DNA of 64,000 nucleotides from Bacteroidota bacterium (GTDB taxonomy: Bacteria > Eisenbacteria > RBG-16-71-46 > SZUA-252). A program made the translations under genes and the position numbers. The stretch is from NCBI GenBank assembly GCA_050257045.1, contig JBLMWD010000093.1, positions 21,242 to 85,241 of the forward strand. The letters run 5' to 3'. Shown here piece by piece: positions 53,424 through 54,240 of the stretch; the stretch's first letter is position 1; each line of letters begins with the position of its first letter. Under the pieces are notes generated by a model. It was not told where the DNA came from, made no database searches, and worked only from the letters and a program-made list of their open reading frames with translations.

Positions 53424-53523
53424 GGCGCGCCATCAAAGCGTCATCAATCGTAGTCAGAAGTCGTCAATCAATGACTACATAGTCTAAGGTCTGAAACGGC
53501 AGTGTTCTGCCGAGCGGTCGATG

Positions 53524-53543
53524 CTTGACCGTCAAGGATTGAC
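53524..53543. promoter_or_regulatory. Candidate enhancer/UAS: three alternating TTGAC/GTCAA half-sites (CTTGAC-C-GTCAAG-GA-TTGAC)
   Basis: A perfect 6+1+6 inverted repeat overlaps a second inverted repeat about 115 bp upstream of the sigma-54 -24 element. It sits in a lower-GC intergenic island. Confidence 0.35.
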
Positions 53544-53646
53544 GACTCCCCCGCCCCGAAGCGCCCGCTATTCCCTCGCACTTCGCAATGTCGTAAGTGG
53601 CTGCAATTAAATAGACTGCCGACAGCATCCCCTCGAAACATGCAAA

Positions 53647-53662
53647 TGGCACGACGGCTGCT
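53647..53662 (+). promoter_or_regulatory. Sigma-54 (RpoN) -24/-12 promoter TGGCACGacggCTGCT
   Basis: It matches TGGCACG-N4-TTGCW at 11 of 12 defined positions with exact GG/GC spacing. It lies 75 bp upstream of the first small peptide ORF on the same strand. Confidence 0.55.
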
Positions 53663-53736
53663 CTAGCACATCTGCGTCGAGGCGCTCGCAAACGGCGAGC
53701 AGACGAAAGCAGACCTAAATCAAGGTGGGGTGAACA

Positions 53737-53823
53737 ATGTCGGCTATCGCGATCGCAATCCTTCTGGCGCTCTTCTCGGCGACGGCTTTCGACAACACGG
53801 GTGGCGGCAAGGCTGGCTGGTAA
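53737..53823 (+). CDS. Small hydrophobic peptide 1 (28 aa: MSAIAIAILLALFSATAFDNTGGGKAGW)
   Basis: The ATG is preceded by SD AAGGTGGGG at a 6-nt spacing. GC3 is about 78%, consistent with host coding. It is a paralogue of the next ORF with an identical C-terminal 10 aa that differ only at synonymous sites. Confidence 0.6.
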   Translation: MSAIAIAILLALFSATAFDNTGGGKAGW

Positions 53824-53895
53824 GCGGGCAGATTCGCAGAGACGGTTCCCGAAGCGGAACGAAGCGACCCCAACAGTGAGAGGAGGTGAATTCAA

Positions 53896-53982
53896 GTGGC
53901 AGCGACTGCGATTCTGATCCTGCTGGCGCTCTTCGGAGCAACCGCTCTCGACAATACGGGCGGCGGGAAGGCGGGCTGGTAA
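53896..53982 (+). CDS. Small hydrophobic peptide 2 (28 aa: (M)AATAILILLALFGATALDNTGGGKAGW)
   Basis: The GTG is preceded by SD GAGGAGG at a 9-nt spacing. GC3 is about 74%. The shared C-terminal motif DNTGGGKAGW with peptide 1 carries four third-position differences, all synonymous, which argues for purifying selection. Confidence 0.6.
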   Translation: MAATAILILLALFGATALDNTGGGKAGW

Positions 53983-54240
53983 CCGGCGGTAGCGACGCAG
54001 CAACCCCCGTGATGGGGCAGCACCGAGCCGGTGCGGTGCCGCCCGCAGGGCAGGGCGAACCCCTGTGGGTGTGAACGGCGATACGATGGGCCATCGGATG
54101 TAGCCCCCCTGGTGGCCCGTCGTCTTGTTGTCGGTGGCGGAATGGATTCCAGGGGGGCGGCTGGCCAGCGGCGGGGGCGTATGATACCGTGGCCGGTCGT
54201 CTCCCAGCCACCGATCCCGCATCCGGAAGGGGCGCCCGCA

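Follow-up and report, generated by a model that had tools for sequence, protein, structure and literature searches.

Introduction

Small hydrophobic peptides of the bacterial inner membrane have been described in several settings. MgrB, SafA, and MzrA (47-127 amino acids, aa) are single-span peptides that are induced by signalling and act in trans on a sensor. Among the type I toxins, Ibs peptides have 18-19 aa and TisB has 29 aa. Other very short open reading frames (ORFs) serve as leaders; SecM (with the motif RAGP) and TnaC act inside the ribosome as arrest peptides. In the zraP-zraSR, pspF-pspA..G, and glmY-glrK systems, a small product encoded next to the gene of a sensor kinase is expressed from a sigma-54 promoter that has an activator site upstream. 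Proteins shorter than 30 aa are largely invisible to annotation. Here, a 64-kb stretch of contig JBLMWD010000093.1 from an Eisenbacteria genome (assembly GCA_050257045.1, positions 21,242 to 85,241 of the forward strand; hereafter, the window) was analyzed. The study concerns the interval 53424-54240 of the window, which lies between a sensor histidine kinase gene and lon and contains two tandem small ORFs whose products end in GKAGW.

The interval appears to harbor a ~460-nt transcription unit, autonomous and specific to Candidatus Eisenbacteria; its expression and function are predictions. The two products belong to a narrow, phylum-specific, and undescribed peptide family, which we refer to as the GKAGW family. 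As far as comparison between sequences can establish such features, it is established that the ORFs are coding, that they form a family, that they are arranged in tandem, and that the two copies evolve in concert, as are the anatomy of promoter, activator sites, and terminator and the independence from lon and the kinase. The reading that we favor, with a probability of about 0.55, is that the two genes encode a pair of membrane micro-proteins that act in trans and are induced via sigma-54. Membrane insertion, topology, action in trans, and the nature of the partner are predicted parts of this reading.

Materials and methods

Loci were collected in two ways. Lon-anchored loci were taken from Eisenbacteria genomes of GTDB. 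Twenty-five of the GTDB loci, two loci from the Joint Genome Institute (JGI), and the window made up the unbiased set of 28 loci and 56 genes, which were not chosen by peptide content. Metagenome loci were found with a DNA pattern for tandem tails, which required two tails and a TAR stop codon and returned 62 contigs, L145 included. Since the pattern demanded TAR, the metagenome set is unusable for stop-codon statistics. L145 was rejected as a family member; it was a chance match of the pattern in a 39-nt minisatellite (~3400-3800, oriented) of a probably eukaryotic contig with a guanine-plus-cytosine (GC) content of 43%.

A sigma-54 promoter was defined by GG at -24, GC at -12, and the TGGCAC-N5-TTGC spacing, all of which are present in the element of the window. 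The activator palindrome was scanned with at most two mismatches, and random 300-nt regions were used as controls. The query of the word-indexed protein search was an alignment of concatenated natural peptide pairs.

Results

Two tandem ORFs of the window belong to a phylum-specific peptide family

The first-pass annotation of the window had proposed two mini-ORFs with strong and well-spaced Shine-Dalgarno (SD) sequences. Both are present (Table 1), and each SD lies 5-7 nt ahead of its start codon: AAGGTGGGGTG / GGTGGGGTG for peptide gene 1 (SD1) and GAGGAGGTGA / GGAGGTGA for peptide gene 2 (SD2). The two genes are 76% identical in DNA; past the start codon, nine codon differences are synonymous and five change the amino acid. 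The last 10 residues of the two products are identical, as had been noted, and the DNA of this part differs at exactly four third positions (AAC/AAT, GGT/GGC, GGC/GGG, and GCT/GCG), all of them synonymous. The GC content at third codon positions had been given as 74-78%; the measured values were 0.76, which agrees, and 0.72, which is slightly lower. The interval is indeed an island of lower GC, with 62% against 70% for the whole window and with 55% in its first part (53424-53736). When the DNTGGGKAGW tail was back-translated, only these two sites were found within the window (0 expected in shuffles), and no further copy of the tail was detected elsewhere in the 64 kb.

The family comprises 92 loci (26 GTDB Eisenbacteria genomes, ~61 soil or sediment metagenome contigs, and the window), 73 of which are distinct in DNA. 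Each locus has exactly two tandem copies, and together they encode 129 distinct peptides with lengths of 18-28 aa. The search of relatives thus recovered the tandem pair, and its ORFs were not disrupted. Both small ORFs were intact in the gap before lon in 25 of the 31 Lon-anchored GTDB Eisenbacteria loci. Another gene lies directly upstream of lon, and no pair is found there, in four loci (L014, L019, L031, and L036); the gene preceding lon in these four is on the minus strand, and their lon is ~80% identical. The remaining two were a locus that ends at lon (L017) and one that shows the copy-2 tail only (L023). Among the Lon-anchored Eisenbacteria loci with the kinase-lon arrangement and enough upstream sequence, the tandem pair was intact in 26/26.

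No described family was found to contain the motif, as had been suspected. The window peptides gave no match to Pfam and NCBIfam at E values up to 10. When 119 family members were compared with NCBIfam, the best E value was 0.008, in three members, to the unrelated PhrA family. The whole-family profile against all PDB chains had a best E value of 0.59 and met only generic transmembrane-helix similarity and the six-residue tail of enterocin HF (E = 1.1). In literature searches the motif did not occur in this sense; 'GKAGW' was met only in enterocin HF, and no papers on Eisenbacteria small proteins were found. A search of 52500-55000 against Rfam 15 returned only a spurious match to a long non-coding RNA (E = 0.34, under the gathering score). 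GKAGW ORFs were absent from the lon loci of Gemmatimonadota. Because the back-translated DNTGGGKAGW gave 0 matches in GTDB genomes, the 10-residue tail is lineage-specific.

Larger protein collections led to the same family. When 1.84 billion representative proteins were scanned exhaustively with HMMER, just 35 reached E ≤ 0.001, and 33 of them end in GKAGW. The other two are rare read-through variants that have lost the stop after the tail; P0179 keeps GKAGW (…GKAGWSAGD…), and P0181 has CKAGW (…GGCKAGWKAYESE…). Sequencing errors or decay of the copies may explain them. In the word-indexed search, 5.8 billion clusters yielded ~47 true matches, all of them unnamed 'hypothetical protein' entries without a Pfam domain. 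Three further matches (P0162, P0163, and P0165) aligned to the artificial junction of the concatenated query only and were discarded. Of these, P0162 and P0165 are zinc-ribbon membrane proteins in which GGKAGW stands directly before a transmembrane helix (…R(R/K)GGKAGWM(M/V)ALLL…), probably by coincidence.

The ORFs vary as coding sequences

All 56 genes of the unbiased set have retained GKAGW followed by a stop. This block occurs in 16 DNA versions, which differ from one another at third positions and in the choice of stop codon but nowhere else. Within the hydrophobic core, conservation is strongest at the second position of the codon, the NUN signature of apolar residues. All length differences among family genes are in frame, and an SD and a start codon are kept in every gene. 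These patterns argue for the claim, made from the window alone, that the ORFs are translated and under purifying selection.

Stop codons of the unbiased set were TAA in 46 genes, TAG in 10, and TGA in none; among ordinary genes of these loci, 4-12% end in TAA. Such usage of TAA is extreme for an organism with ~70% GC. Efficient termination may have been selected for, UGG-UGA read-through may be avoided, or release factor 1 may be preferred.

The possibility that an RNA element is conserved instead of a coding sequence was not borne out. The predicted transcript is no more stably folded than shuffled sequence (z = 0.21), the Rfam search was negative, and the variation falls on third positions. 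No conserved antisense frame was present across the module.

The peptides combine a variable apolar core with an invariant pentapeptide

Apart from the C-terminal G-K-A-G-W before the stop, no residue is invariant family-wide. At position 2, after Met, 94 of the 129 distinct peptides have Glu or Ala. The apolar stretch, taken as the longest run without charged residues and Pro, spans 11-20 residues (median 14), with a Kyte-Doolittle mean of 2.1-3.3 over residues 3-13. Charged residues are almost absent ahead of the linker, which is Gly/Pro/Asp-rich and places 0-8 residues before GKAGW. The 28-mers of the window are the longest in the family, and their DNTGGG linker occurs otherwise only in copy 2 of L007; the shortest members have 18-19 aa, e.g., MELLIIVGFIYTFGKAGW (18 aa).

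The hydropathy and the nearly charge-free core are in line with the earlier description of hydrophobic, probably membrane-located peptides. Two other proposals of the first-pass annotation were not upheld. A secreted 11-mer (F/L-DNTGGGKAGW) released by cleavage after an AXA site fails because the 18-aa members have no room for a signal peptide plus product and because AXA is not conserved; the F/L-DNTGGG sequence is not conserved either. The peptides also lack the positively charged n-region expected of a Sec signal peptide, and AXA occurs in some lineages only. As for an entericidin-like function, no lipobox is apparent in the peptide sequences, and no entericidin family was matched in the library searches.

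The two copies of a genome are kept matched

In their variable part, the two copies within a genome are 66% identical. Between genomes, the identity is 41% for copy 1 with copy 1, 38% for copy 2 with copy 2, and 39% for the cross comparison. Because these values are alike, at ~40%, in every comparison, there is no stable orthology of copy 1 or copy 2. The copies are equal in length in 30 of 70 pairs, against 12 expected by shuffling. All 30 equal-length pairs differ in DNA, and where the two copies have the same residue, the codon differs in 36% of cases. The pattern agrees with co-evolution, or with episodes of gene conversion and subsequent purifying selection. An example of apparent conversion is copy 1 of the window, which is of a long type that the close relative L007 has only as copy 2. 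Under either account, both peptides are apparently needed, and in similar form.

A predicted dedicated sigma-54 promoter precedes the pair

The element TGGCACGACGGCTGCT is the sole zero-mismatch sigma-54 match in the window. A sigma-54 element is found in 70 of the 73 distinct loci, 60-90 nt ahead of start codon 1, and the extended promoter motif GCAAATGGCAYGNCGNCTGCT is invariant in 26/26 aligned loci. On the basis of the known consensus, the element is predicted to function with sigma-54, and the usual spacing would place the transcription start at ~53673. The palindrome GTnGTCA-N5-TGACnAC was present at fixed offsets (-183 to -198, or -129, relative to the promoter) in 40/67 loci, compared with 26/340 controls. 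Site 2 of the window corresponds to a second cluster of sites near -129 in other loci, e.g., in L005 (GTGGTCAAGGATTGACGAC). The first-pass annotation had overlooked this direct regulatory input, which consists of the sigma-54 promoter and the upstream palindrome, together with a putative dedicated terminator that would separate the pair from lon.

The leader between promoter and SD1 contains 44% A, 32% C, and 5% T. The stem of its hairpin is altered on both sides between loci (CTCGC/GCGAG, CCCGC/GCGGG, and CTTGG/CACAAG), and it is also present in the minimum-free-energy fold. GGNGGT stands before copy 2 in all loci, and the spacer between the two genes measures 63-93 nt.

Conserved hairpins and a probable lon promoter delimit the unit downstream

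Loci of the family fall into two genomic contexts, with lon or with envelope-related genes downstream (see below), and both the hairpin with the GGGCGAA loop and the terminator-like hairpin are found in either one. In 69 distinct sequences, the pairs of the former form in 86-96% (RNAalifold). The DNA conservation of this hairpin exceeds that of the peptide cores. It could be a protein- or RNA-binding element or the mark of a dual-function RNA.

The consensus fold of the terminator-like hairpin has 18 pairs, six of them with compensatory changes. The pairs form in 88-100% of the 69 distinct sequences, and 12 of 13 stem pairs reach at least 97%. The hairpin lies 82-140 nt past the stop codon. 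A simple terminator scan did not flag it in the window; from its structure and T-rich tail, it would work as a terminator. Inspection of the folds revealed no alternative antiterminator pairing that involves the ORF ends.

Beyond the terminator, 54 of 56 distinct loci share the motif TGnTAnnnT, 48-79 nt ahead of the lon start. A strict sigma-70 scan detected no promoter at lon. By its resemblance to the consensus, the element is probably lon's own promoter, which would lie outside the peptide unit and mark its downstream boundary. A structured RNA or riboswitch was considered for the near-invariant G-rich block before lon (54150-54204) and rejected; RNAalifold gave no consensus structure, and the extended -10 fits better. 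Two possible pairings involve the block, one between GGGGGGCGGCTGGCC (54151-65) and GGCCGGTCGTCTCCC (54190-204) and one between CCAGGGGGG (54150-58) and its complement CCCCCCTGG in the loop of the terminator. The block may have another regulatory role as DNA or RNA.

The unit persists without lon and without the kinase

The pair of the window lies, as first described, between an orphan sensor kinase and lon; no response regulator adjoins the kinase gene. The kinase-pair-lon order is kept in most loci (context 1). The gene order they share is M16 peptidase, TRAM methyltransferase, a ~225-aa cupredoxin-like protein, kinase, a gap of ~750 bp, and lon. This gap is almost never annotated; most peptide copies are uncalled, and the others are 'hypothetical'.

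Six loci (L101, L112, L130, L131, L107, and L138) have the complete unit, i.e., the sigma-54 element, the leader, both genes, the GGGCGAA hairpin, and the terminator, followed not by lon but by genes for a FadL-like outer-membrane protein and unannotated secreted proteins. In L101, L130, and L107, the upstream gene in this second context is a homologue of the kinase, with ~30% identity over the HAMP-to-ATPase region. The homologue in L101 has lost the His box (…APAVREAASSI… vs …ASHEILTPV… in the kinase), no Pfam kinase domain scores, and it looks like a pseudokinase. Two further loci (L087 and L125) lack both the kinase gene and its partner gene; there, the unit lies between the TRAM methyltransferase gene and lon. 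Because the unit is intact without lon and without the kinase, or with a degenerate kinase, it appears to be autonomous and to require neither neighbor.

A functional link to the kinase had been proposed from the position of the pair. The synteny on which this was based is common, but the proposed link is weakened by the persistence of the unit where the kinase is missing (L087 and L125) and where its homologue is degenerate (L101, L130, and similar loci). The unit occupies a single syntenic locus across the phylum, in 26 of the 28 Lon-anchored Eisenbacteria loci whose upstream sequence sufficed for a judgement; therefore, a host function fits better than a selfish element.

In context 1, the kinase gene overlaps the stop codon of the gene for a 224-aa secreted protein by 4 nt (ATGA). 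This pairing is conserved in all context-1 loci, and the two genes may form a sensing module. The Lon of the window has orthologues in Candidatus Eisenbacteria at 75-92% identity, by which the organism is assigned to this group; neither this Lon nor the kinase had an exact database entry. In the second context, a secreted protein of ~170 aa recurs (…ADNMxILRxKLKADKKLVVAEAM…YYQIENKIRAVVNYELA…), which has no Pfam match and is accompanied by the FadL-like outer-membrane protein and a small beta-barrel-looking protein. These genes may be an envelope-related set downstream of the sigma-54 unit.

Table 1. Features of the peptide unit and its surroundings (window positions unless a locus is named)
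Feature	Position	Strand	Description
Upstream activator site 1	53460..53478	+	Perfect palindrome GTCGTCA-N5-TGACTAC, 187 nt upstream of -24; putative enhancer-binding-protein site
Upstream activator site 2	53528..53546	+	ACCGTCA-AGGAT-TGACGAC, 2 mismatches, ~-119 from -24; assigned by inspection
Predicted sigma-54 (-24/-12) promoter	53647..53662	+	TGGCACGACGGCTGCT; GG at 53648-49, GC at 53660-61
5' leader hairpin	53684..53700	+	GCTCGC-aaacg-GCGAGC, then an A/C-rich, T-poor tract up to SD1
Peptide gene 1	53737..53823	+	28 aa, MSAIAIAILLALFSATAFDNTGGGKAGW; ATG start, TAA stop
Spacer between peptide genes	53824..53895	+	72 nt, A/C-rich, with SD2 (GAGGAGGTGA) at its end
Peptide gene 2	53896..53982	+	28 aa, MAATAILILLALFGATALDNTGGGKAGW; GTG start, TAA stop
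Less conserved hairpin	54020-54034	+	GCACCG-agc-CGGTGC
Hairpin in the 3' untranslated region	54042..54069	+	CCCGCAGGG-cAGGGCGAAc-CCCTGTGGG; GGGCGAA loop nearly invariant
Terminator-like hairpin	54078..54134	+	18 bp (54078-54128), 3' side into the T-rich tail TCGTCTTGTTGTC
Probable lon promoter	54161..54190	+	-35-like CTGGCC (54161-66), 18-nt spacer, extended -10 TG-a-TACCGT (54182-90)
lon, ATP-dependent Lon protease	54241..56838	+	Pfam LON_substr_bdg, AAA, Lon_C
Sensor histidine kinase	51615..53423	+	dCache_3, HAMP, HisKA, HATPase_c (Pfam)
224-aa secreted-protein gene	50944-51618	+	Weak cupredoxin-like / CarboxypepD_reg-like domain matches
Diverged kinase homologue, second context (oriented)	L101 3-1040; L130 1-801; L107 3-398		
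Secreted-protein region downstream of the unit (oriented)	L130 1546-4309; L107 1272-1796; L138 1313-1810		

Discussion

The reading that we favor is a pair of membrane micro-proteins that act in trans and are induced via sigma-54. An enhancer-binding protein on the palindromes ~120-190 nt upstream would switch on the sigma-54 promoter. The mRNA would carry a stabilising hairpin at its 5' end, two separately initiated micro-genes, the 3' hairpins, and an intrinsic terminator, while lon would be transcribed from its own promoter. The peptides would be made in bursts when the activator switches. Each would start with formyl-Met and insert in the cytoplasmic membrane as a minimal single-span helix. 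An N-out, C-in orientation is suggested by the positive-inside rule, since the N-terminus is acidic or neutral and a single Lys stands near the C-terminus; Lys, the terminal Trp, and the carboxylate would then lie at the cytoplasmic interface. The peptides would act in trans as a matched pair. Because the pentapeptide is absolutely invariant beside a freely drifting core, the GKAGW end may be recognised by a conserved partner. Candidate partners are a membrane sensor or the adjacent kinase, in the way of MgrB-like feedback, a protease such as Lon, or another cytoplasmic factor. A bolder version, which we hold to be rather doubtful, is a new class of micro-protein system that would serve as a phylum-wide stress switch without parallel in model bacteria. 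It would be made of an obligate, co-evolving pair of minimal membrane helices, expressed from a sigma-54-controlled mini-operon of their own, whose GKAGW would be a docking or degron signal for a conserved cytoplasmic machine, e.g., Lon, another AAA+ protease, or the cytoplasmic domains of the kinase, or would act on the ribosome; the hairpin with the GGGCGAA loop could add a role as a dual-function RNA.

Several observations speak against a membrane pair of this kind or narrow what can be said for it. The apolar core of the shortest members, with 11-13 residues, is short for a canonical transmembrane helix. An invariant pentapeptide beside a varying core is also expected of a nascent-chain or ribosome motif, or of a processing or modification site. 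No GAFTGA motif of an enhancer-binding protein was found in the 64-kb window, and because no activator of this type is present there, the regulator is probably encoded elsewhere. Neither the kinase nor lon is obligatory beside the unit. Finally, the statement that there are always two copies is unbiased for the Lon-anchored loci only, as the metagenome search pattern demanded two tails.

Other explanations were weighed against the same data. The peptides might damage membranes in the manner of the type I toxins Ibs, TisB, Hok, and Ldr, depolarising or permeabilising the membrane of their own cell and so causing growth arrest, persistence, or lysis. Their size of 18-28 aa and their extreme hydrophobicity are akin to those of Ibs and TisB, tandem paralogues are typical of such loci, and a sigma-54 promoter, which is silent without its activator, would suit a dangerous product. 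This is nevertheless unlikely. Strong SDs follow unstructured-looking A/C-rich tracts, unlike the sequestered or weak initiation sites of type I toxins; the distribution of the unit, at a single syntenic place throughout the phylum, is neither sporadic nor multicopy; and an invariant C-terminal pentapeptide is foreign to the known toxins. There is also no conserved antisense ORF and no sign of an antisense RNA, although no dedicated test or antisense-promoter scan was run. Somewhat less probable still is that the ORFs are cis-acting leader or arrest peptides, in which KAGW and the stop would stall the ribosome and control terminator read-through into lon or the envelope genes. Such a mechanism would account for conservation concentrated at the C-terminus by the stop codon after a linker of variable length, and for a conserved hairpin and T-run after the second ORF in both contexts, whichever gene is downstream; K-A-G also resembles the R-A-G of SecM. 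The presence of two complete ORFs whose hydrophobic cores co-evolve would stay unexplained. TAA, the stop codon of highest efficiency, is strongly preferred, which speaks against programmed stalling at termination; no antiterminator pairing with the ORF ends was seen on inspection, and the terminator lies well past the stop (82-140 nt), with a downstream gene that has its own conserved promoter element.

Export of the peptides, as signal, pheromone, or bacteriocin-like product, or as the precursor of a ribosomally synthesised and post-translationally modified peptide (RiPP) from which GKAGW would be released or in which it would be modified (e.g., by a Lys-Trp cross-link), is very improbable. 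An invariant short core beside a variable region has the look of a RiPP precursor, Lys-Trp cross-linked RiPPs exist, and the tail resembles the C-terminal ...TGGKAGWK of enterocin HF. The PDB match to enterocin HF, however, had an E value of 1.1 and covered the six-residue motif only; YGNGV box and double-glycine leader are missing, and Lys is preceded by just one Gly in many members. In neither context do the genes next to the module encode a maturation enzyme, radical-SAM protein, peptidase, or ABC exporter; AXA is not conserved, and peptides of 18-19 aa could not accommodate both a Sec signal peptide and a cargo. Lastly, there is next to no chance that the ORFs arose by accident within a conserved non-coding RNA or regulatory region. 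The promoter and the 3' hairpins are more conserved in DNA than most of the coding sequence, which speaks for such an origin. The comparative data effectively refute it already: the variation has a three-base periodicity, the tail changes are synonymous in all 16 DNA versions, both ORFs and their SDs are intact in 26/26 unbiased loci although the core diverges by ~60%, the stop codons are biased, and neither an Rfam match nor excess folding energy was found.

The GKAGW family is unusually well defined given the small size of its products and offers a clean test case for micro-proteins in an uncultured soil phylum, with 129 variants, an invariant pentapeptide, matched tandem copies, and a readable regulatory anatomy. 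From the activator sites to the terminator, the module measures ~0.7 kb, so that its synthesis and transfer to a tractable host are possible. For the annotation of Eisenbacteria genomes, TGGCACG-N4-CTGCT followed after ~75 nt by a tandem ...GKAGW-TAA pair can be used as a signature. Should a sensor, a protease, or membrane energetics be modulated by the peptides, these would represent a new type of sigma-54-controlled effector.

In kind, the GKAGW peptides resemble the small hydrophobic inner-membrane peptides MgrB, Ibs, TisB, KdpF, and AcrZ, and they are members of none of these families. With MgrB, SafA, and MzrA they share the predicted single-span form and a place that is usually behind a kinase gene. 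They differ in the lack of sequence similarity, in their length of 18-28 aa, and in having no periplasmic domain or Cys pair; in addition, their genes are always tandem, are predicted to depend on sigma-54, and survive the loss or decay of the kinase. The type I toxins Ibs, TisB, Ldr, and Hok are similar in length, extreme hydrophobicity, tandem paralogy, and tight transcriptional control, whereas the GKAGW unit has strong ribosome-binding sites, a vertically inherited single locus, an invariant GKAGW, and no homology to them. Class IIa bacteriocins (enterocin HF, mundticin, and sakacin P) are membrane-active peptides with a Gly-rich stretch followed by (K/A/N)AGW near the C-terminus. Comparison of enterocin HF (...NLTTGGKAGWK) with the window peptides (...DNTGGGKAGW) shows that only a motif of 6-9 residues is common. 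The GKAGW peptides and their neighbors lack the YGNGV box, disulfide, double-glycine leader, immunity gene, and transporter; they come from a different phylum, only GKAGW is conserved among them, and the chain ends there. Leader peptides such as SecM, TnaC, MifM, and the Erm leaders are likewise encoded by very short ORFs, with C-terminal conservation by the stop codon and a hairpin that follows. By contrast, the GKAGW unit has two complete co-evolving ORFs that prefer TAA, no antiterminator was seen, and its downstream gene varies and has its own promoter. A parallel in regulation is with zraP, psp, and glmY, in which the products are a periplasmic chaperone, a PspA-type protein, or a small RNA; the GKAGW products are two micro-peptides, and the activator gene is not adjacent. 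The combination of an obligate tandem pair, an invariant C-terminal pentapeptide, and a predicted dedicated sigma-54 promoter with activator sites and terminator, confined to one uncultured phylum, is what distinguishes the GKAGW unit from all of these systems.

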